The position numbers and the translations under genes were made by a program. Shown here in pieces: positions 16,239 to 63,325 of a DNA stretch of 64,000 bases. Source of the DNA: an uncultured Planctomycetota bacterium (GTDB taxonomy: Bacteria; Planctomycetota; Planctomycetia; Isosphaerales; Isosphaeraceae); the NCBI GenBank assembly GCA_963823665.1, contig CAWGMQ010000006.1, positions 864,001 through 928,000 on the forward strand, written 5' to 3'. The notes under the pieces are model-generated. The model was not told where the DNA came from. It saw nothing but the letters and a program-made list of their open reading frames with translations, and made no database searches. Numbering within the stretch: position 1 is the first letter of the stretch; every line of letters begins with the position of its first letter.

Positions 16239-17265
16239 ATGAGTCATCTGATCCTACTTGCGTTCTCGATGCTACTTCAGGCCGCACCCCAGGATGCGCC
16301 CACAGCGGCTTTGCCCAAGGTCCACAAAATTGCCGTTGGAGGCGAGGGTGGCTGGGACTATCTCACGGTCGACTCGGAGGCGCGGCGGCTGTATGTCTCG
16401 CGAGGCGATCGGGTCACCGTGCTCAACCTCGACACGGAAGCCGTCGTTGGCGAGCTGGCGGGCACGCCTGGCGTCCACGGGATTGCGGTCGTGCCGGAGC
16501 TCGGCAAGGGGTTCACCAGCAACGGCAGGGATAGCAGTGTGACGGTCTTCGACCTCAAGACCCTGAAGGCAACCAACAAGATCAAGGCTAGCGGCGTGCC
16601 CGACGCGATCCTCTACGACCCGTCGAGCAAGCGCGTGATCACCTTCAACCACAGCACCAACGACGGGACCTCGATTGACCCTGACACGGAAAAGGTCGCC
16701 GGCACGATCCCCTTCGGGGGCGAGCCCGAGGCGGCCGTTGCCGATGGGAGGGGGCACATCTTCGTCAACATCCGGAGGCTCTAGCGAGGTGCTCGAGTTC
16801 GACGCGCTCTCGCTGAAGATCCTCAATCGCTGGCCGCTGGCGCCCGGACAGAGGCCGAACGGACTGGCCATCGACGCCAAGAACCGCCGGCTGTTCAGCG
16901 GCTGCAACGGCAATTCCAAGATGGTGGTGATGGACGCCGACAAGGGAACCGTGATCGCCCTAGTCGACATCGGCCGAGGCTCGGACGGCTGCGGCTTCGA
17001 TCCGACGAAGGGCCTGGCCTACAGCTCCAACGGCGGCGAAGGCACCGTGACCATGATCGGCGAGGCCGAGCCGGGCAAGTTCAAGGTCGTCGCGACGGTG
17101 CCCACCCAGGCGACCGCCCGGACGATGACCGTCGACCCGAAGACGCATCGCCTCTACCTGTCAGCCGCGACCCCGGCTCCCGCCGCCGCCGGTGCCCAAC
17201 AGACGAAAGGCGGTCGAAGAGGCAACGTCCCAGGCTCATTCGTGATCGTTGTGGTCGGCGATTGA
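16239..17265 (+). CDS. YncE/YVTN-type beta-propeller protein (frameshift near 16780)
   Basis: GGEGGWDYLTVD...RRLYVSR; GVHGIA; continues in another frame PNGLAID...ARTMTVDPKTHRLYL. Confidence 0.85.
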
Positions 17266-20200
17266 TTTCGGCCCATCACAACCGCAGGACGCGATCAGGT
17301 TGTGAAACGCCTTGGTTATGTGATGGTCTCGGCCGAAGCGTGGTAGGGCACGCTCGAGCCCCTCGCGTAGCCATCGGCATGCCTCGGACTGGTCGCTGTT
17401 GCCGATCGCGAACCTGGCGATTGACAGGAGCGTGCTGAACGTTGTCGGATGATCGCGGCCCAGCACCCGCTCCACATCCGGCAGCAGCTTGGCGAACAGT
17501 CGCAGGGCCTCCTCGCTTTCGCCCAGCTCGCCGGTCCAGTCTGCGACGTTGCTACGGGTCGTGAGCGCATGAGCGTGATCGCGACCCAGCACTCCCTCCT
17601 GATCCGGCAACAGTTCGCCAAATAGCCGCAACGCTTCCCACCCGTTGCCCACACGGCCGGTCCAGGTCGCGACGTTGCTGCGCGTGTCGAGCGTGTCGGG
17701 ATGGTCGGGTCCGAGTTTCCGCTCCTGGTGCGACAGCAGCTCGGGGAACAGCCGAAGCACCTCCCAACATTCGCCCACGTCGCCGTTCATGCTCGCGATC
17801 GTACTTCGAGTATGGAGCGTTTGCTTATCGCCGGGCCCGAGCAGCCGCTCCTGGTCGGAACGCAGCTCCGTGAGTAGCCGCAGCGCCCGCCGTTTCTTGC
17901 CCAATACGGCGGACCACCGCGCGATGTTGCCGCGAGTGTAGAGTGCGTCTTTGTGATCGCGGCCCAGCAGCCGCTGCTGATCTTTGAGCAATTGGGTGGA
18001 CAGCCGACGTGCGTTCCGCACGTCGCCCAGCTCCCCGGTGCAGTACGCGATGTTGCTGCGGGTCCGAAGCGTGTCGGCGCGGTCGTGGCCCAGCACGCGC
18101 TCCTGGTCCGGCAGCAGCAAGGTGAACAGCCGCAGCGCCTCCCTCGACTCTCCGACGTCTCTGGTACAAACCGCGATCTTCCCGCGCGTCTGGAGCGTGT
18201 CCGCGTGACTCTGGCCCAAGACTCGCTCCTGGTCCGGCAGCAGCAAGGTGAACAGCCGCAGCGCCTCCCGTGCGTCGCCCAATTGGTGAGTCGCAAAGGC
18301 GATGGCGCTGCGGGTCTTGAGCGTGAGTTCGTCGTCGCGACCTAGCACGCGCTCCTGGTCGGCCGGAAGTTCCGCGAACAGCCGCAACGCGCCGGGCAGG
18401 TCGCCTGCACAGGCCGTGCTGGCCGCGACCATCATGCGGCGCAGAAGCGTGAGGCGAGCCGTCAGGTCGTCGTGGCCGAGCTTGCCCCAGGCGTCCGGTA
18501 GCAGTGTGTGCAACTGCCGCGACACCTCGAGTATCTCGTCCACATCTTTGATCGAGGATGCGATTCTGAAACGTGTTCGAAGCGTCCGCGGGTCATTGCG
18601 TCCCAGAATGCGCTCCTGGTCGGCCAGCAGCGCCCTGAACAGCCGCGACGCCTCCGGCGCGTCGCCAAGCTCGGCCGTGCAGGAGGCGATGTCGAATCGT
18701 GTGTTGAGCGAGTCGGAATGGTCACTGCCCAGTAGCCGCTGCTGGTCCGGCAGCAGCTCACAGTAGAGCCGCAGCGCCTCGCGCGCGTCGCCCAGTTGGC
18801 CGGTCCAATACGCGATGCAGTTGCGGACCCAGAGATTGTCGGCGTGGTCATGGCCCAGCACTCGCTCCTGGTCCGGCAGCAGCTCGGCGAATACCCGCAG
18901 AGCTTCCCGCCCCTCGCCCAGGTTCCCGGTCCAATGTGCGATGTAGCCGCGCGTTTTGAATGAATCAGCGTGGTCGGGGCCCACTGCTCGCTCCTGGTCC
19001 GACAGTAGCTCGGCAAACTGCCGAAGGGCTCCCCGCGCGTCGCCCATTGCGCCCGTGCAGAAAGCGATGCGGCCGCGCGTAGTCAGCGTCATGGGGTGGT
19101 CGGGGCCCAGCGCGTGCTCCTGCTCCGGCAACAGTTCAGCGCTCAATCGCAGCGCTTCCTGGTAATTGCCGGATCGGCCTGACCACCCGGCGATCGCACC
19201 GCGCAGATCCAGGATGTGGGGCGTATTCTCGTCGAATCGCTGGCGAAACCGAGGGATCCACTCCTGCAAGCGTCGGAGAGTCTCCTGAGGGTCGGGCAGT
19301 TCGCGGCTGCGCAGGGATGCCAAAGTACGCACGGCGTCGCCGAGCGCCCACAGGTGATCCGCCTCGCGGAGCATCGCGTAACGGTGAATGGGGTCGTGTC
19401 GGTTTTGTTTGGCCGTCGCGGCCAGCGCGTCGATCGCCTGGATCATCGCCTCGTGCATTGCTCTCGCATCGAGCGGAAACCCGGCGCAGGTGGCCGATGG
19501 GTCGAGTAGATACTCGGCCAGGGAGGCGTGGAACATGCCCGCGTGCTCGTCCGTGGCGCCCGCATCCCGGCGTGCGACAAGGCCGCCCAGGCGGTCCAGG
19601 ACCTCGCGGACGCCGTCCGAGCCCTCTGGACCGCCCAGGTTCTGGCACGCTTGCGCGAGCAGTGAAAGCGGCAGCACCGGGCCTTCTCCGGCGAGCGCCA
19701 GCAGGCCGAGCATCAGGCTGAATGTGTGGTTCGACGCGCCGGATGGCCGGGCTTGGTCGAGCAGCTTCGCATAAACCTCGTTCACCGAGCTCGGCATTCG
19801 CGCGAGGTCGATCGCTGGATCGCTCTGGATCAAGTCTGCCAGCAGACGGGTGAGGAGCCAGTGGCCTCCGGCTCGATTGTGGAGGGCAGGACGTGCGGAG
19901 GCCGGGACCTGGCGGTTGGTTAGGTAGCGTTCGAGGGGATCGCGCGCGGTCAGCCCATGGTCAAGTGTGAATCCCGAAGGGCAGCCCGGTGTGTCGGGCC
20001 GCGCGGTGATGACAATGCGAAGGTTCTCGGGCCACGCCGCGACTGCCTCGCGGACCGCATCGCGCGTTAATTCCGGTAGTCGCTCGAAACCGTCCAGCAC
20101 GATTCGAAGCTCCGGTTTCTGATCCAGGTACGCGAGCGGCTGGAGCACTTTCCGCGCGAGGGCGTCCAACTTCTCGCGCTCTGCAAGCGGGACGCTCCGA

Positions 20201-20550
20201 CCGAACTCGGCAACGGCCTCGGCGAATCCCGGCACCGAGCCACAGAGCTGGCGCTCCAGGTCGTCGCCAAGGCTCGCCGGATTGGTGTCGCGACTGAGAA
20301 TCGCAATGGCATGCACGAAACGGTCCGGGACACTGCCGCCGGCGATCTCCGGCCGCGCCAGCGCCGTCGCCAGGCTCGACTTGCCGGCGCCCGCCTTGCC
20401 TGTCAGCACGACGACCCGGTGTAACCGGCTTGCTTCGACCAGAGCATCGAGCTGCGTCGTGGGCTGGAACAACCAGGAGCGTGCCACGATGTGGGCTCGT
20501 CCCGCACTGTCCTGCCAGCAGAACTCATCGGGGCCGCGGCGCGAGGCCAT
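17236..20550 (-). CDS. STAND/NACHT-like NTPase with ~42-aa TPR repeats; N-terminus probably truncated
   Basis: Walker A GKAGAGKSS; Walker B IVLDGFE; many LLPDQERVLGxDHxDTLxTRxxIA repeats. Confidence 0.85.
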   Translation of the reverse strand: MASRRGPDEFCWQDSAGRAHIVARSWLFQPTTQLDALVEASRLHRVVVLTGKAGAGKSSLATALARPEIAGGSVPDRFVHAIAILSRDTNPASLGDDLERQLCGSVPGFAEAVAEFGRSVPLAEREKLDALARKVLQPLAYLDQKPELRIVLDGFERLPELTRDAVREAVAAWPENLRIVITARPDTPGCPSGFTLDHGLTARDPLERYLTNRQVPASARPALHNRAGGHWLLTRLLADLIQSDPAIDLARMPSSVNEVYAKLLDQARPSGASNHTFSLMLGLLALAGEGPVLPLSLLAQACQNLGGPEGSDGVREVLDRLGGLVARRDAGATDEHAGMFHASLAEYLLDPSATCAGFPLDARAMHEAMIQAIDALAATAKQNRHDPIHRYAMLREADHLWALGDAVRTLASLRSRELPDPQETLRRLQEWIPRFRQRFDENTPHILDLRGAIAGWSGRSGNYQEALRLSAELLPEQEHALGPDHPMTLTTRGRIAFCTGAMGDARGALRQFAELLSDQERAVGPDHADSFKTRGYIAHWTGNLGEGREALRVFAELLPDQERVLGHDHADNLWVRNCIAYWTGQLGDAREALRLYCELLPDQQRLLGSDHSDSLNTRFDIASCTAELGDAPEASRLFRALLADQERILGRNDPRTLRTRFRIASSIKDVDEILEVSRQLHTLLPDAWGKLGHDDLTARLTLLRRMMVAASTACAGDLPGALRLFAELPADQERVLGRDDELTLKTRSAIAFATHQLGDAREALRLFTLLLPDQERVLGQSHADTLQTRGKIAVCTRDVGESREALRLFTLLLPDQERVLGHDRADTLRTRSNIAYCTGELGDVRNARRLSTQLLKDQQRLLGRDHKDALYTRGNIARWSAVLGKKRRALRLLTELRSDQERLLGPGDKQTLHTRSTIASMNGDVGECWEVLRLFPELLSHQERKLGPDHPDTLDTRSNVATWTGRVGNGWEALRLFGELLPDQEGVLGRDHAHALTTRSNVADWTGELGESEEALRLFAKLLPDVERVLGRDHPTTFSTLLSIARFAIGNSDQSEACRWLREGLERALPRFGRDHHITKAFHNLIASCGCDGPKSIADHNDHE

Positions 20551-46776: not shown

Positions 46777-46882
46777 GAGAAGCCAGAGAAGCCAGACACC
46801 CAATCTCTGAGGAGCCAGAGAGGAGCCAGACACCCAATCTCGAGGAGCCAGACACCCAATCTCTGGTTCCGAGGAGGAGCCA
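46777..46882 (+). repeat. Stuttered tandem copies of GAGGAGCCAGACACCCAATCTC
   Basis: Three CCAGACACCCAATCTC copies interleaved with partial GAG(G/A)AGCCAG units. Confidence 0.85.
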
Positions 46883-47025
46883 GGGAATTCAAGACACCCA
46901 TCCGTTGTCACGGCCCTCCGCATCCATTCATTCGTGGCACGCAAATTCGGTGCAAAACCACGGCCTCTGGTCATTTCGAGCACGCAGAAGGCCAGTGCCC
47001 GACGCTCGGCAAACGGTGGGTGTCT
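46883..47025 (+). mobile_element. ~145-bp inverted-repeat element (MITE/REPIN-like), copy 1; right arm interrupted by intron 1
   Basis: AGACACCCATCC...GGTGGGTGTCT; arm completed by GCCATCC at 49038-49044. Confidence 0.85.
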
Positions 47026-49037
47026 TTGCGTCAGGAAAAGCTCGAGAAAGGGGGAAGTGCCTCGAAACACAGAAACCTTTCATCGCGACCCTGCGGGTTA
47101 ACGAATCCCGCCCGGCAGAGCCTGGCCGGCAGCCGGAAGCAAGTCTTGCGTGGGGAGGGGTGACCCTCACTGCGAAGCGTAGACAGCGAGTCCCCATGCC
47201 ATGCTATCGAGCCCCGAAATACTCATCGTGGGAGCCTCCGTTGTAGACACAAGCGGGGGCCGCGTCGACACGCCGCAATGGCCTGGCGTGTTCGGTCCTG
47301 CCGGGGTCCAAGAACATGGCGCAGGGACGCGAGGGTTGCTCGGGAACCTGAGAGCCCCATCCGTCTCCACTGACATTTCCGGCTCGGGAACCGGAATACC
47401 AACTCCCCGGCCCACGACCCCGCGTCGGGTCGCTGGGAGCGAACAGGACGCAAGGGTGGTATCGCCACACGAAGGCAACGAAGTGCGGCGAAAGGGGCGG
47501 ATGGGAGTCGGAGCGTCTCGTAGTACCGTTGAAGCCGGGGAACCACTCCGAGGGACCCGGTGGAGGGAAGGAGACGCCATGTCACACAACCGTTGGAGGG
47601 AAACATGGCGGGTGCATCGGAACCCGTGGACGTGTCCACGAAACAACAACGGATAGCGGAACTCGCTCGGCGAAGCCCGGAGATGGGATTCACATCCCTG
47701 GGGCACTTCATCGACCTCGATTGGCTGCTCACAGCTTACTACCGGACCCGCCAAGACGGGGCGGTGGGCGTAGACGGACAAGATGGCGAGGCCTACGCAG
47801 CGAACCTGGTCCCGAACCTACGGTCGCTGCTGGAACGAGCCAAGTCCGGTACGTACCACGCACCGCCTGTGCGGCGAGTGCATATCCCCAAGGCAGGCTC
47901 AGCGACCGAAACCCGGCCACTGGGAATCCCGACCTTCGAGGATAAAGTGCTCCAGCGTGCTGTCGTGATGGTTCTGGAGGCGATATACGAGCAGGACTTC
48001 AAGAACTGCTCGCATGGCTTCCGGCCCGAGCGATCGGCACACACTGCGTCAGAGAGCCTGTGGCAACAGACGATGAACATGAAGGGCGGATGGGTAGTGG
48101 ATGTGGACATTCGTAAGTTCTTTGACACGATTGACCACGGCCATCTACGCGACTTCCTCAAGCGTCGGGTGCGAGACGGAGTGCTGCTCCGGCTCATCGG
48201 CAAATGGCTCAATGCGGGCGTCTTCGAGAACGGGTGCGTTACGCACCCCGAAATGGGGTCGCCACAAGGGGGTGTGATCAGCCCGATCCTTTCGAATATC
48301 TTCCTGCACTACGTGCTGGACGAGTGGTTCGAGCGGGAGGTTCAGCCTCGGATGATGGGCAGATCGTTCTTGATCCGCTATGCGGACGACTTCGTCATGG
48401 TCTTCTCATGCGAGTCCGACGCACGGCGTGTGATGAATGTGTTGCCCAAACGCTTTGAGAAGTACGGCTTGACCATCCACCCGGACAAGACGCGGCTGGT
48501 GCCGTTCGAGCGGCCATCGGACCGTCCCAAACCGGAAGGCGGACCCCCGCGAACTCCACCAGGGACATTCGACCTGCTGGCGTTCACGCATTACTGGGGT
48601 CGCTCCCGGCAGGGTCGCTGGGTGGTGAAGCGCAAGACGTCCAAAAGTCGATTTCGCCGAGGCCTGCGAACGTTGGCGGACTGGTGTCGCAAAAATCGAC
48701 ATCTACCGCTCAAGGTGCAGCACCGGATACTAGGTCAGAAACTGCTAGGCCACTATGCCTACTACGGAATCACCGGCAACTCCAAAATGTTGTCACGGTT
48801 TCGCAGTGGTGCCACCTGGCTCTGGCAGCACTGGCTGTCGCGCCGCGGGCGCGGCCGTCGGATGACATGGGAACGGTTCGCTCGGTTCCTGAAGCATAAA
48901 CCGCTTCCGGCAGCGATTGCGATCCACTCAGTATGCCGTCTCGTAGCGAACAAGTGACATGACGAGCCGGGTGCCTTAATTGGGCAAGCCCGGCTCTGTG
49001 GGAGCCTTGGGGGAGCGATCCCCCAAGGCGACCCGGC
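47026..49037 (+). mobile_element. Group II intron 1 (bacterial class E-like, RT-encoding)
   Basis: 5' TTGCG; EBS1 AGACAC 47245-47250 pairs with exon GTGTCT; D5 48964-48996 (AGC triad); D6 ends GACCCGGC. Confidence 0.92.
47605..48957 (+). CDS. ltrA: Group II intron reverse transcriptase/maturase without endonuclease
   Basis: GGAGG RBS; RPLGIPTFED, DIRKFFD, GSPQGG, RYADD; domain X GHYAYYG; no HNH. Confidence 0.95.
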   Translation: MAGASEPVDVSTKQQRIAELARRSPEMGFTSLGHFIDLDWLLTAYYRTRQDGAVGVDGQDGEAYAANLVPNLRSLLERAKSGTYHAPPVRRVHIPKAGSATETRPLGIPTFEDKVLQRAVVMVLEAIYEQDFKNCSHGFRPERSAHTASESLWQQTMNMKGGWVVDVDIRKFFDTIDHGHLRDFLKRRVRDGVLLRLIGKWLNAGVFENGCVTHPEMGSPQGGVISPILSNIFLHYVLDEWFEREVQPRMMGRSFLIRYADDFVMVFSCESDARRVMNVLPKRFEKYGLTIHPDKTRLVPFERPSDRPKPEGGPPRTPPGTFDLLAFTHYWGRSRQGRWVVKRKTSKSRFRRGLRTLADWCRKNRHLPLKVQHRILGQKLLGHYAYYGITGNSKMLSRFRSGATWLWQHWLSRRGRGRRMTWERFARFLKHKPLPAAIAIHSVCRLVANK

Positions 49038-49781
49038 GCCATCCTGAGATCGATGGGTGTCTGCCATCCCTGCGCCAAGAAGCTCGGAAAAGGAGGATCA
49101 TCTCAAATGTGAAACCTTTTAGCGGAACCCTGCGGGTAACCAATCCCGTCCGGCAGAGCCGGGCCAGCAGCCGGAAGTGAGTCTTGCGTGGGGAGAGGCG
49201 ACTCTCACTGCGAAGCGTAGACAGCGAGATCAAACGCTGTGCGATTGAGCCTCGAAATTTTCCCTCTTTGTCCTGAGCCCTCGTCCTTGTCTGACGCGGG
49301 GGCCGAGCCGGGCATTAGCGAAACCTGGACCCACTAGCGTGCCCGGTCAGACCGGGGTCGGAGAACATGGCGAATGATCAGTAGGGTTCCCCGGGAACTT
49401 GGGAGACCTTGTCGTTTCCATCGTGACGGCCGGCCGGAGCACCGGCTTACCAACTCCAGGTTGATCCACAGCTCTGTCCCGAGCTGGTGGGGACGAACAG
49501 GGGACGAACGATGGTATCGCCAAGCGAAGGAAACGAAGCGCGGCGAAATGGACGGCAAGGAGTCGGAGTGCCCCATAGTAGTGTTGAAGCGGGGGAACGG
49601 CCCTCCGGACCCTGTGGAGCGAAGGGGGCACCGCGTTGTGGATGGGAAGTTGGAACCACGCCGAGGACACCGTGCCTCACCAGCGTGTCACCGCGAAACG
49701 ACCTAGTCGTGTGAGGGACAGTGATTCCCCAACGTGACGAGCCGGATGCCTCTTCGACGGGCAAGTCCGGATCTGTGGGAA

Positions 49782-52201
49782 TCGCGAAACGAAGCTGCGG
49801 ATGAGTCTGTTATGACTGGATTTGCAACCAGGACATAACCCGATGTACGACCACCGGAACCCTACCAGGACGTGCGGCCGGAGCAATCCGACCGTGCGAA
49901 GCTCTTGGGACAACGTAACCTCACCTTCGGGTGGTTGGATATCCCGTGAGGGAATCCGGCGACTGCGAACGCCAATGCGGTCGGGGGCCAGGGGTGGATG
50001 GCATGGCTAATCCAGGTGAACTGCCGATAAACGTCGTGAGATCCAACAAGCCAAAGGCGCTGAGAGGCTTGAACCAAAAAGGTACGTGGCCAGGTACAGT
50101 GGGATTTCCCATCCCCTGTCGTCGTCATCCGAGCCACCGGCGGAGAGGCAGAGCCTAAACCATCCGTGATTCATCCGTGGAACGTGGTAAGCCCGTCGCC
50201 CTCCCTTCGGGGTAGGACCGTCGTAAGGCGTCGCCGATGGGGCGGCGGGTGGAGGATGAGGGAGCAAGCCAATGCCGTTCGGTAGTCGATCGGATAGAGG
50301 GTGAGTCCTCCCACGGACGACATCCCCTCACCGCGAAAGCGGTGCCGACTTCCCTCAGGTGTTCCGTCACGAGAGAACCTTGGCCAACCGACTCAGGGAG
50401 ACAAGCAGATATGTCGGCGGCAGAAATGCTTGCTGGTGCGGCTCCCGAGCTTACGCCCGACTGGCACTCCATCGAATGGAAGAAAGTCTGGCGCACAGTC
50501 CGTCGGCTCCAGGCGCGTATCGTGAAGGCTGTTGCGGAGGGCAGATGGAATAAGGTCAAGGCTCTGGTTTATCTGCTCACGCACTCGTTCAGTGGCCGGG
50601 CCCTGGCCATTTTGCGAGTCATCAGTAATTCGGGTGCGAAGACTCCCGGTGTGGACGGAGTTCTCTGGAACACACCGGAAGCCAAGTCGGCTGCTTTCAG
50701 CACTCTGCGTCGGCACGGTTACCAACCGCAACCGCTCCGCCGGGTGTACATTCCCAAAAGCAACGGCAAGCGACGTCCTCTCGGAATTCCCACCATGTCA
50801 GATCGAGCCATGCAGGCATTATACTTGCTAGGCCTCGATCCCATTGCGGAATCTCGAGCCGACGGCCATTCCTATGGCTTTCGGCTGGAACGTCGTTGTG
50901 CCGACGCCCTGGAACAATCTCATATTGTCTTGGGTAATCGGAGCGGTCCAGCATGGATTCTCGAAGGGGACATCAAAGCTTGCTTTGATCGCATCAGTCA
51001 TGACTGGCTCTTGACGCACGTCCCCATGGACCGGCAGTTGCTCGGGCAATGGCTGAAAGTGGGTTTCCTGGAGAAGCACGCCTGGTTCGCCACCACGGAA
51101 GGAACACCTCAAGGCGGGATCATTTCACCCGTCCTGGCGAATTGGACTCTGGATGGACTGCAACGGCTGTTGGCGGAACAGTTCGCCGAGAAGCACGGGC
51201 GACAACGGAAGTTTAAAGTCCACCTGGTCCGCTATGCGGATGACTTCTTGATCACGGGCATCTCAAAGGAACTCCTCCGTGACCAAGTGCAACCTCTCGT
51301 GGCTCATTTCTTGAAGGAACGCGGCTTGGAACTTTCCCACGAGAAAACCCAGATCACGCATGTGGAGGATGGCTTCGATTTCTTGGGGCAGAATGTGCGA
51401 CGCTATCGCTGCGGCAAGGTGTTCACCAAGCCGTCCTTGCGAAACGTGAAGACGTTCTTGAACAAGATACAGGAAACGATCGACGGCTCGGGCAGCCTAA
51501 CGGCAGGAGAGATGATCTGGCGTTTGAATCAGCAGATCAAGGGCTGGACCATGTACCACCGTTACGCGGCGAGCAAGCGCACTTTTACGTACGTGGATCA
51601 CCGGATTTTCCAGAAATTGTGGCGTTGGTGTCGACGACGGCACCAGAACAAAGGCCGGAGGTGGATCAAGGAGAAATACTTCCAGCAAGACGGTTACCGC
51701 CACTGGGTCTTCACCGGTACGCTGTTTGACCAGAAAGGCCAAGGCCGGCCGATCCAGTTGATGGAAGCAGCCAAAGTGAAGATCATTCGTTATGTGAAGA
51801 TCCGGAGCGACGTGAATCCCTACGATCCGAAGTGGGAACTGTACCTGGAAGCACGACTGGGTTGGCAACTGAGCCAAACGCTGGCAGGTCGGGGTCGGAT
51901 CGAATACTTATGGAAGGAACAAGAGGGACGATGCGTGGTCTGTGGTCAACCGCTGCGGATCGCAGAGGAAGACTTGCATCTCCACCATCGCATCTGGCGC
52001 AGCCGGGGCGGTTCTGGCACAGCCGACAACCTGGAGTTGTTGCATGCCAACTGTCATCGGCAGATCCATGTCCAAGAACGACTGACGAAAGCGGCCGCGT
52101 CCTGCGAGGGGCGTTCGTGAAGGCTTGAGCTGCATGAAGGGAAACTTTCACGTGCAGTTCTGAGGGGAGGGGGTGGCGGTAACGTCACCTCCTTACCCGG
52201 C
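49782..52201 (+). mobile_element. Group II intron 3 (CL1-like); inner intron of the twintron
   Basis: 5' TCGCGAAACGAAGCTGCGGATGAG; EBS2 AGATCC 50039-50044; EBS1 TTCCCA 50106-50111; D5 52127-52160; ends TTACCCGGC. Confidence 0.9.
50411..52120 (+). CDS. ltrA: Group II intron RT/maturase with RVT_N and HNH endonuclease domains
   Basis: WHSIEW...[35 protein letters not shown]...HH...GG...NL...HANCHRQIH. Confidence 0.95.
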
Positions 52202-52234
52202 CCCGGGGCGGGCAACCGCCCTGGGTGACCCGGC

Positions 52235-52372
52235 CCCATCCAGTTGTCACGGTCGCCCGCATCCATTCATTTGCGGCTCGCTCGTTCGGCGCAAAACCAC
52301 GGCCCCCGGTCATTTCGAACACGCAGAAGGTCAGTGCCCGACGCCCGACAAAAGGTGCGTGTGTGACATCCC
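52235..52372 (+). mobile_element. Inverted-repeat element copy 2 (left arm cut by intron 2; right arm degenerate and empty)
   Basis: Begins CCCATCC; same core as copy 1; ends GTGTGTGACATCCC. Confidence 0.8.
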
Positions 52373-53226: not shown

Positions 53227-53377
53227 GGAATCCAGGCACCGATCCTTTGTCTCACGGCCTCCGCATCCATTCATTCGCGGCTCGCTCGTTCGGTGCAAAA
53301 CCACGGCCTCTGGTCATTTCGAACACGCAGAAGGCCAGTGCCCGACGCTCGGCAAACGGTGGGTGTCTGACATCCCC
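53227..53377 (+). mobile_element. Inverted-repeat element copy 3 (intron-free, empty site)
   Basis: GGAATCCAGGCACCGATCC...GGTGGGTGTCTGACATCCCC uninterrupted. Confidence 0.88.
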
Positions 53378-56053: not shown

Positions 56054-56196
56054 GGGATTCCAGACACCCATCCTTTGTCTCACGGCCTCCACATCCATTC
56101 ATTCGCGGCTCGCTCGTTCGGCGCAAAACCACGGCCTCTGGTCAAGTCGAACACGCAGAAGGCCAGTGCCCGATGCTCGGCAAACGGTGGGTGTCT
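56054..56196 (+). mobile_element. Inverted-repeat element copy 4; right arm interrupted by intron 4
   Basis: GGGATTCCAGACACCCATCC...GGTGGGTGTCT; GGCATCC resumes at 56929. Confidence 0.88.
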
Positions 56197-56928
56197 TTGC
56201 GTCAGGAAAGCTCGAGAAAGGAGGAAGTGCCTCGAAACACAGAAACCTTTCATCGCGACCCTGCGGGTTAACGAATCCCGCCCGGCAGAGCCTGGCCGGC
56301 AGCCGGAAGCAAGTCTTGCGTGGGGAGGGGTGACCCTCACTGCGAAGCGTAGACAGCGAGTCTCCATGCCATGCTATCGAGCCCCGAAATACTCATCGTG
56401 GGAGCCTCCGTTGTAGACACAAGCGGGGGCCGTGTCGACACGCCGCAATGGCCTGGCGTGTTCGGTCCTGCCGGGGTCCAAGAACATGGCGCAGGGACGC
56501 GAGGGTTGCTCGGGAACCTGAGAGCCCCATCCGTCTCCACTGACATTTCCGGCTCGGGAACCGGAATACCAACTCCCCGGCCCACGACCCCGCGTCGGGT
56601 CGCTGGGAGCGAACAAGACGCAAGGGTGGTATCGCCAAACGAAGGCAACGAAGTGCGGCGAAATGGGCGGACGGGAGTCGGAGTGCTCCGTAGTAGCAGT
56701 GAAGCGGGGGAATGGGCCCTCCCAGACCCTGTGGAGCGAAGGGGGTACCGTGTCGCGGACTGGAAGCCGGAACCACGCCGAGGGCATTGGACCTCAGAGC
56801 GCGTCACCGCGAGGCGACCAGATCGTGTGAGGGACAGCGACGCCGCGACATGACGAGCCGGATGCCTTAATTGGGCACGTCCGGATCAGTGGGAGCCCTG
56901 GCGGAGCGATCCGCCAGGGCGACCCGGC
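56197..56928 (+). mobile_element. Group II intron 4 (ORF-less, 732 nt)
   Basis: TTGCG start; EBS1 AGACAC 56415-56420; D5 56855-56887; intact D6 ending GACCCGGC; no RT ORF. Confidence 0.92.
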
Positions 56929-58502: not shown

Positions 58503-58644
58503 GGTTTCCAGACACCCATCCTTTGTCCCACGGCCCCCGCATCCATTCATTCGCGGCTCGCACGCTCGGCGGAAAACCACGGCCTCTGGTCAATTCGAAC
58601 ACGCAGAAGGCGAGTGCCCGACGCTCGGCAAACGGTGGGTGTCT
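58503..58644 (+). mobile_element. Inverted-repeat element copy 5; right arm interrupted by intron 5
   Basis: GGTTTCCAGACACCCATCC (preceded by an extra GGTTTCCAGA)...GGTGGGTGTCT; GGCATCCC resumes at 59377. Confidence 0.88.
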
Positions 58645-59376
58645 TTGCGTCAGGAAAGCTCGAGAAAGGAGGAAGTGCCTCGAAACACAGAAACCTTTCA
58701 TCGCGACCCTGCGGGTTAACGAATCCCGCCCGGCAGAGCCTGGCCGGCAGCCGGAAGCAAGTCTTGCGTGGGGAGGGGTGACCCTCACTGCGAAGCGTAG
58801 ACAGCGAGTCTCCATGCCATGCTATCGAGCCCCGAAATACTCATCGTGGGAGCCTCCGTTGTAGACACAAGCGGGGGCCGTGTCGACACGCCGCAATGGC
58901 CTGGCGTGTTCGGTCCTGCCGGGGTCCAAGAACATGGCGCAGGGACGCGAGGGTTGCTCGGGAACCTGAGAGCCCCATCCGTCTCCACTGACATTTCCGG
59001 CTCGGGAACCGGAATACCAACTCCCCGGCCCACGACCCCGCGTCGGGTCGCTGGGAGCGAACAAGACGCAAGGGTGGTATCGCCAAACGAAGGCAACGAA
59101 GTGCGGCGAAATGGGCGGACGGGAGTCGGAGTGCTCCGTAGTAGCAGTGAAGCGGGGGAATGGGCCCTCCCAGACCCTGTGGAGCGAAGGGGGTACCGTG
59201 TCGCGGACTGGAAGCCGGAACCACGCCGAGGGCATTGGACCTCAGAGCGCGTCACCGCGAGGCGACCAGATCGTGTGAGGGACAGCGACGCCGCGACATG
59301 ACGAGCCGGATGCCTTAATTGGGCACGTCCGGATCAGTGGGAGCCCTGGCGGAGCGATCCGCCAGGGCGACCCGGC
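58645..59376 (+). mobile_element. Group II intron 5 (ORF-less, 732 nt; identical to intron 4 by eye)
   Basis: Same termini; EBS1 58863-58868; D5 59303-59335. Confidence 0.92.
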
Positions 59377-62768: not shown

Positions 62769-62812
62769 GGGACGGAAACTGGGACGCACGGGGACGGAAA
62801 CTGGGACGCACG
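62769..62812 (+). repeat. Exact 22-bp tandem duplication GGGACGGAAACTGGGACGCACG (REP-like)
   Basis: Two adjacent copies ending ~40 nt upstream of a RAYT-like start codon. Confidence 0.85.
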
Positions 62813-62854
62813 TAGTATTGACGGGAGCCCTCAGTTCTGTGAGCAAATGTTGTC

Positions 62855-62995
62855 ATGCCAAGAACAGCGAGGGTAGCAGCTTGGGGCTTTGTCTATCACG
62901 TCCTGAACCGATCCGTCGGCAGGATGCACATGTTCCGCAAGGAGTCCGACTTCGAGGCGTTCGAGCGTGTCATGGTTGAAGCTCACCTGCGGCAA
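62855..62995 (+). pseudogene. N-terminal stub of a RAYT-like (Y1 HUH) transposase
   Basis: MPRTAR...GFVYHVLNRSVGRMHMFRKESDFEAFERVM; ends before the HUH motif. Confidence 0.8.
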
Positions 62996-63325
62996 CGTCC
63001 TCGCCAACGAGATCGCTGGTCACAAGGCGGAGCGGCGGCCGAGGGCCGGAGAAGAATGGCTTGCCGCGACCAAGTACGATGGGGTGGATGTAAAGTCGAT
63101 GCTCATCAATAAGACCAAAGTTGGTTAGGCTTCCTGCCAAGTCTGGTCCGGCAACTTCAATCTCCCCAACTGGCTGTGCCTTCAGCCCACGTATCACCGC
63201 CTCGATGTCATCCTCGACAAGTGTGGCGTTGGGTCCGACCGACTTCAACGTGCGCGACACAACCCACTTCGGCTGGCTCCGCCACGCCGCCGCGAAGTCG
63301 TGTTCCTCCGCGCCCCAACGCCTCT
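62996..63325 (-). pseudogene. Fragment of a dihydrofolate reductase/RibD C-terminal family protein
   Basis: PKWVVSRTL...GPDLAGSL...GLIDEHRLYIHPIVLGRGKPFF; both ends missing. Confidence 0.75.

Follow-up and report, generated by a model that had tools for sequence, protein, structure and literature searches.

The DNA analysed here, a stretch of 64,000 nucleotides (the window: positions 864,001 to 928,000 of contig CAWGMQ010000006.1, assembly GCA_963823665.1), comes from the 16.5-Mb genome of an uncultured planctomycete of the family Isosphaeraceae and carries two group II introns in close succession, intron 1 and intron 2. Every outer intron of the window (intron 2 is itself interrupted by another intron) sits in a repeat element of ∼150 bp with inverted arms of ∼20 bp, to which at least 43 matches were found in the genome; the copy counts given for this genome (G000) are lower bounds, the best 40 candidates being scored in each search. 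In all likelihood, introns 1 and 2 represent long-separated lineages lacking an endonuclease domain (En-minus) which lie in opposite strands of one 20-bp arm, 5 bp apart, probably placed there by retrohoming via their guide loops, and the window copy of intron 2 likely deleted its 5′ exon.

Comparison of the window with Rfam revealed four related domain 1 (D1) regions, one unrelated D1 and one domain 5/6 (D5/6). RF02005 matched at 47102–47316 and 49140–49367, and D5 and D6 hairpins fold. The outer lineages have the features of IIB-type group II introns, i.e. matching D1–D4, a D5 with an AGC triad and a D6 with a bulged A. The reverse transcriptase (RT)/maturase of intron 1 matched RVT_1 alone, with TIGR04416 above its cut-off and no endonuclease domain. 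Intron 2 has no open reading frame (ORF), and the RT genes found bearing intron-2 D5/D6 were partial only (L088, L214). The best plasmid matches were at 52–58%. The features are collected in Table 1.

Table 1. Introns, exon-binding sites (EBS) and repeat elements of the window
Feature	Position	Strand	Description
Repeat element A	46883–47025	+	∼150 bp with inverted arms; one mismatch to the intron-2 site in the left arm, then the core and the right arm as far as the intron-1 insertion GTGTCT^
Intron 1	47026–49037	+	En-minus group IIB-type, forward-strand clade
EBS of intron 1			EBS1 AGACAC 47245–47250; EBS2 candidate TCATCG 47223–47228; EBS3 C47309
Intron-1 RT/maturase ORF	47605–48957	+	450 aa from ATG (465 aa from GTG 47560); YADD intact; endonuclease domain absent
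Intron-1 3′ exon GCCATCC and second right-arm unit (49046–49070)	49038–49070	+	Unit joined to the second base of intron 2
Intron 2 (outer, ORF-less, reverse-strand group), D1 to D5	49071–49781	+	Without first base and intron-binding site 1
EBS of intron 2			EBS1 TGTCTG 49288–49293; EBS2 candidate 49258–49266; EBS3 G49360
Inner intron (RT-maturase-HNH)	49782–52201	+	Rfam D1D4-7 and D5/6; at TGTGGGAA^CC, between outer D5 and D6
Inner-intron EBS1 candidate	50106–50111		TTCCCA
Inner-intron ORF	50237–52120	+	Likely start 50411; RVT_N, RVT_1, GIIM, HNH
Intron 2, D6 and 3′ end	52202–52234	+	Ends ACCCGGC
Repeat element B	52235–52372	+	Remainder of left arm (CCCATCC), core, degenerate right arm
Empty repeat element	53227–53376	+	
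Repeat element with intron	56055–56928	+	ORF-less intron-1-lineage copy (56197–56928) in right arm
Repeat element with intron	58503–59376	+	ORF-less intron-1-lineage copy (58645–59376) in right arm

The first-pass annotation of the window had pointed out that intron 2 bears TGTCTG where intron 1 has AGACAC as EBS1. The two hexamers do align in register, and covariation identifies that register as EBS1: with 15 hexamer types, one representative each and the mismatched window copy included, 73 of the 90 positions facing exon bases −6 to −1 formed Watson-Crick pairs, the mean of 20,000 permutations being 39.9 and their maximum 65, and registers shifted by 1–3 nt giving 16–27 pairs (four rows with an alignment gap were omitted). 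In 102 distinct junctions, a set from which 5′ ends lacking either a recognisable start or the d3 region were excluded, pairing between EBS1 and intron-binding site 1 (IBS1) reached 6/6 in 79, 5/6 in 18, 4/6 in 3 and 2/6 in 2, wobbles allowed. Free folding of the D1 fragment did not yield an EBS1 stem (z = −0.3), so the register rests on covariation; short hairpin folds place the hexamer in, or beside, a loop. EBS3 is C in intron 1 (exon position +1 mostly G) and G in intron 2 (+1 C), and across the copies whose end was found an EBS3 G pairs with +1 C, and an EBS3 C or T with +1 G, in most. EBS1–IBS1 and EBS3–IBS3 pairing are both present in the outer lineages; the damaged window copy of intron 2, at 2/6, fails. 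Candidate EBS2 sequences formed runs of 4–6 pairs with IBS2 in most copies, which were usually shorter when EBS2 was swapped, some swapped runs being equally long. EBS1 in this class takes 15 or more hexamers. Since the EBS3 and the EBS2 candidates of introns 1 and 2 differ as well, the latter tracking positions −14 to −7, more than EBS1 has changed between the two.

It had been predicted that other copies of intron 2 follow CAGACA and that the site CAGACA^CCCATCC belongs to the repeat family occupied by intron 1; both predictions held. Nine of 13 other intron-2-type 5′ ends in this genome, drawn from the best 40 of 80 candidates, follow CAGACA, the other four following CAGACG, CAGGAA, CGGACG and GCGTCC, the last in a copy with its own EBS1, GGACGC. 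Eight other TGTCTG-bearing copies, from G000, its congener G001 and G231, lie at CAGACA (six) or at a site with one mismatch (two). The intact copy L002/L080 occupies exactly the predicted site in a left arm, reading CTCAGACA^intron^CCCATCC and then the repeat core.

The absence of CAGACA from the 5′ flank of the window copy was confirmed. The span proposed for intron 2 (49070–52241) stood in part: the 3′ exon CCCATCC had been correctly recognised but, because it occupies 52235–52241, the intron ends at 52234; the real start lies at 49071, and the RT-HNH intron nested inside had gone unmentioned. Positions 49046–49070 make up a complete 25-nt unit, a right-arm variant also found in tandem at L077, and because C49070 is its last base, intron 2 begins here at its second base. 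Other full-length copies begin TTGCG or TCGCG; fusion of the arm unit to base 2 therefore means that IBS1 and the first T are both missing. A later loss of IBS1, as first proposed, is supported: the 5′ loss likely reflects a deletion that followed insertion and removed at least 6 nt, possibly as much as an inter-element spacer. A contig from an RNA library (run X8) joins a left arm, CCAGACA and T to position 49071 (one contig at 90% likeness, possibly from another strain). Alternatively, the odd junction might have arisen at insertion, partial reverse splicing fixing the 3′ end and imprecise upstream joining of the cDNA losing IBS1 and base 1. Imprecise 5′ joining occurs in linear-intron homing, and here the 3′ junction at ^CCCATCC is precise, with damage on the 5′ side alone. 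This origin is nevertheless improbable: duplicated or fused arm ends are common where no intron is present, such a loss is seen at none of the 102 junctions other than those of the window copy and G014 L168, and the removal of 6 nt from a left arm of the ATCC-CAGACA type (present at C11:556458 and 696695) suffices. Whatever the course of the loss, the window copy is predicted to be unable to splice, and is probably dead, because IBS1 is missing and the inner intron separates D5 from D6; EBS1–IBS1 pairing is described as crucial in IIE/IIF introns (PMC3753933). Directly upstream of intron 2, at 49062/49063, lies an empty, well-matched intron-1 site. Elsewhere, many intron-2-type 5′ fragments (L061, L062, L064, L078, L079; in G001, L162, L163, L164) break off near base 112, where the D1c hairpin has its foot, and are followed by unrelated DNA.

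The window copy is a twintron. The inner intron and its relatives are represented by window 49782–52201, L111–L117 and L381. All seven full copies of the inner intron lie at TGTGGGAR^CC, the uninterrupted junction being present in G001 and in a public contig; their D1 is 100% identical, and they occupy the D5/D6 junction of both outer lineages. A relative of the inner intron was seen in G207 at the same D5/D6 junction, and another in G017 with a different EBS1 and site.

The two lineages had been thought to take opposite arms of the element. This was not borne out: the split is by strand, and each lineage also uses the other arm, reversed. Their sites lie on opposite strands of the 20-bp arm, GTGTCT^G for intron 1 and CAGACA^C for intron 2, with the cuts at 8.5 and 13.5, 5 bp apart and symmetric about the centre (11) of the arm's GGAT..ATCC dyad. 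Over 32 full elements, intron 1 was found in the right arm of six and, reversed, in the left arm of two, and intron 2 in the left arm of two. Reversed left-arm copies of intron 1 are those at C11:579505 and C6:1327239; in G001, L162 consists of an intron-2-type 5′ piece and 3′ end, reversed in a right arm and flanking 2.4 kb of other DNA. Further intron-1 copies occupy tandem arm duplicates or solo arm-like sites. Partition of the target as an avoidance of competition is likewise unsupported, because most sites are empty (perfect empty arms numbered 21 left and 15 right); none of the 32 elements holds both introns. Intron-1 copies are co-oriented within C11:551–580 kb, and within C6:911–1327 kb, regardless of element orientation, a suggestive pattern. 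At C11 ∼568740 (C11 568615), a right arm is cut at the intron-1 position and followed by GTGCG, possibly the stub of another intron.

Introns 1 and 2 are not sisters differing by an EBS1 change, as had been assumed. A clade of both was rejected by the approximately unbiased (AU) test (P = 1.2 × 10–5, 67 log-likelihood units), and D1 trees with the EBS columns removed, as well as the RT tree, separate the two lineages; they share 79% identity in D1 (EBS masked), and each is closer to introns with other targets than to the other. The idea of a recent sister of intron 1 that moved to the left arm by a change in EBS1 only, the lineages dividing the element by arm, would account for co-oriented copies of intron 1 in right arms (6/32) and of intron 2 in left arms (2/32), and for the GGAT/ATCC symmetry flanking both sites. 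With sisterhood rejected, EBS3 and the EBS2 candidate differing and both arms used by both lineages, it is largely refuted, and we give it hardly any credence.

The preferred reading, two old lineages on opposite strands, fits the family at large. The forward-strand group carries EBS1 AGACAC, TGACAC, TGACCC or TGTCCC and lies at GGTGTCA^G, GGGGTCA^G and GGGGACA^; its 20 rows, with two TGAATC rows, form one side of a branch with 84/81 support in a D1 tree built from 80 rows, the EBS columns being masked. The reverse-strand group carries TGTCAG, GGTCAG, TGTCTG, GGACAT, GGACAC or GGACGC and lies at CTGACA^CC, CTGACC^CC and ATGTCC^CC; as a single clade it was rejected (AU P = 2 × 10–4). Intron 2, presented originally as the retargeted intron, is in the more widespread, reverse state, and the likelier strand-switcher is the clade of intron 1: with the midpoint root, the reverse-strand state would be the older and a single switch would fall in intron 1's ancestry. 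Among 38 genomes, chosen by similarity and for multiple matches, 11 had forward types, 28 had reverse types and 9 had both; in 7 of these 9, the two types read the same motif variant. One base separates AGACAC from TGACAC and, likewise, TGTCTG from TGTCAG; both changes affect the same target base pair. This genome contains 20 copies of intron 1 at 98–100% identity, which implies recent mobility; no intron-1 copy was found in congener G001 (84% complete), which carries the element and intron 2, and intron 1 is therefore likely the later invader.

Two observations were made on other members of the class. In another genus, the intron-1-lineage copies L141, L177 and L191 of G030 carry an IS110-like insertion (labelled by eye) in place of the RT ORF. 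A lineage with EBS1 CTTCGT (G008 L171–L176; G033 L158) inserts downstream of sequence resembling GAAGGAAACGAAG, and such sequence is also present within introns of this class (window ∼49528–49540).

The targets of the relatives point to the ends of transposable elements. Relatives' forward introns (EBS1 TGACAC, TGACCC, TGTCCC) lie at GGTGTCA^G-type sites and their reverse introns (EBS1 TGTCAG, GGTCAG, GGACAT and others) at CTGACA^CC-type sites, and many of these sites match inverted repeats that flank genes for Y1 (HUH) transposases. When the 14-mer 5′ exons of relatives were compared with the flanks of Y1 genes, matches of at least 13/14 were obtained for 14 of 37 reverse and 4 of 16 forward sites (18/53), as against 0/185 reverse and 0/80 forward control trials (0/265) and 0/20 for other specificities. 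In G014 (L168/L245) the intron lies within the downstream repeat of a Y1 gene; Y1 matches adjoin intron ends in five further genomes, listed without one-by-one inspection. Judged from their sequences, the relatives' target sites are the GGGGWSAS repeats of TIRtrons. The arm of the present genome, GGTGTCTG, fits a GGGGWSAS-like motif at 6 of 8 positions and is one core base away from GGTGTCAG, which flanks Y1 genes L119 and L242. This arm was not found bounding a Y1 gene, and arm copies occur near or inside broken Y1 genes (L120, L123). The ∼150-bp element is probably derived from terminal inverted repeats (TIR) and similar to a miniature inverted-repeat transposable element, its status as a TIRtron end being unproven.

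Both lineages might instead have converged independently on an abundant intergenic palindrome with no shared history in transposase terminal repeats. The lack of a cognate Y1 gene for this arm, the near restriction of the element to one genus (present in 3 of 61 genomes, in one of them as a partial match) and the malleability of EBS1 speak for convergence; we consider it a minority possibility, since the closest relatives of the two lineages likewise target the two strands of GGTGTCAG/GGGGTCAG repeats, again 5 bp apart, and since a single core base separates the arm from the repeat flanking L119. As single-stranded DNA the element folds weakly (z −1.0 to −1.6), and hairpin recognition of the class C kind is therefore not supported. 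An integron attC array was also considered and rejected: no RYYYAAC/GTTRRRY cores were seen by eye in the element (an integrase was not searched for), the ORFs between repeats do not share one strand, and some of the elements are inverted.

A third specificity was observed in this genome at L003/L073 (C8:519607–520310), where EBS1 GGACGC lies at GCGTCC^CC, a 14/14 match to a Y1-flanking repeat. From late D1 on this copy is nearly identical to the window intron 2, with the D6 of intron 1, and it looks mosaic.

Under the favoured account, then, the guide loops of each intron would pair with one strand of the repeat arm, and insertion would proceed by ordinary retrohoming through RNA–DNA pairing, ORF-less copies being mobilised in trans by an RT of the same class. 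The arm may descend from the Y1-flanking repeat by the change from GGTGTCAG to GGTGTCTG, a base-pair change that both lineages would have tracked with one EBS1 substitution each. Co-oriented introns, perhaps owing to fork direction, would end up in different arms of an element.

Several results weigh against this account. None of 19 AGACAC sites and none of 9 TGTCTG/CGTCTG sites reached 13/14 when compared with 38 Y1 loci; a Y1 match within 1.2 kb was present at 2 of the 116 arm-motif loci listed (14 of 64 collection parts), with no clear terminal pair; and the pre-deletion allele was not found in public runs (contigs; at most 49% of words present). Two forward-type copies (L545, L547) have automatically called 3′ exons without the initial G. 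The support of the forward clade is not starred, in a midpoint-rooted tree of 268 columns, and chimeras exist, such as G014 L168 with EBS1 GGATTT in a CTGACA site; the way in which the 38 genomes were chosen counts here too. Local GC skew placed 8 of 10 intron-1 clusters and 6 of 14 intron-2 types on the G-rich strand (overall 14/24, P = 0.54); the inner intron was on that strand in 5 of 7 cases.

Other features of the window include a DUF1559 gene, indicative of a planctomycete, and, at 46780–46900, degenerate tandem copies of a left-arm variant upstream of element A; tandem duplications of arm ends recur at many elements. A broken Y1-type transposase frame lies at 62780–63110, preceded by GGGACGCAC tandem repeats; it was identified by likeness to L124/L127 and has no NCBIfam match. 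The protein encoded at 17236–20550 contains 42-aa tandem repeats (126-bp period), which we take to be similar to tetratricopeptide repeats.

Among the closest known systems is RmInt2 of Sinorhizobium meliloti GR4, which homes into the inverted repeats of the insertion sequence (IS) ISRm17 (PMC4615759). As described there, it too is an En-minus IIB-type intron in a terminal inverted repeat, with two sites per element on opposite replication strands and ∼72% identity to a co-resident relative with different EBS. That single intron, however, uses both repeats, its relative RmInt1 uses another IS, and the target is the end of a DDE IS; here two lineages use complementary strands 5 bp apart, and the relatives' targets are Y1/HUH element ends. 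The TeI3/TeI4 introns of Thermosynechococcus elongatus resemble the present ones in that their EBS have diverged into families using different sites, some copies lack an ORF, and twintrons combine identical inner with diverged outer introns (PMC2882425). They differ in being recent sisters with En-bearing proteins, and in their inner introns, which are ORF-less and lie at the ORF start, whereas an RT-HNH intron lies between D5 and D6 here; the available portion of that source describes no shared palindromic target (PMC2882425). For TIRtrons/TIRYT, GGGGWSAS terminal repeats and dispersed dimers and clusters of repeats are described (PMC3733652, PMC6006769), and the relatives' sites match such Y1_Tnp-flanking repeats (GGGGTCAG, GGTGTCAG and GGGGAC types); the arm of this genome agrees only in part with the consensus, and a cognate transposase was not found for it. 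The word 'intron' is absent from the main text of PMC3733652. Class C introns, found at attC sites and terminators, similarly home into repeated palindromic intergenic elements in variable regions, but read a hairpin with a short EBS1 (PMC4424553, PMC7923331); the introns described here have a 6-nt EBS1, EBS3 and a probable EBS2, covarying with sequence.

EBS divergence, ORF-less families and twintrons (PMC2882425) and homing into IS inverted repeats (RmInt2, PMC4615759) are thus already on record in these sources. Added here are the arm-versus-strand test, the rejected sisterhood and the family-wide forward/reverse pattern. A literature search, with subscription papers mostly outside it, returned nothing on two intron lineages that target complementary strands of a single repeat, on introns at the ends of Y1 elements (including group II introns with tyrosine transposases, RAYT) or on planctomycete group II intron target sites with EBS1; by title or abstract, there was likewise nothing on group II introns in repetitive extragenic palindromic sequences.

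The chemistry itself would be ordinary retrohoming. Reviews give homing sites, terminators and attC as the target types of bacterial introns, IS inverted repeats being known from RmInt2. As a broader and distinctly tentative proposal, planctomycetes of the Isosphaeraceae type may harbour a stable guild of two intron clades that split between them the strands of the terminal repeats of HUH transposases, with a constant stagger of 5 bp, and chase repeat variants by parallel EBS1 substitutions, an HNH intron parasitising both at D5/D6. If so, a single RT could mobilise the two ORF-less lineages by virtue of their dyad-symmetric sites, and the intron sites would overlap the recognition or cleavage motif of the transposase, so that the introns disable or exploit TIRtrons. 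Paired clades reading both strands of one transposase-end motif offer a natural series for the joint change of EBS1, EBS2 and EBS3, and for the way in which introns follow a moving target; their fixed insertion points may mark the functional core of the poorly studied ends of TIRtrons.

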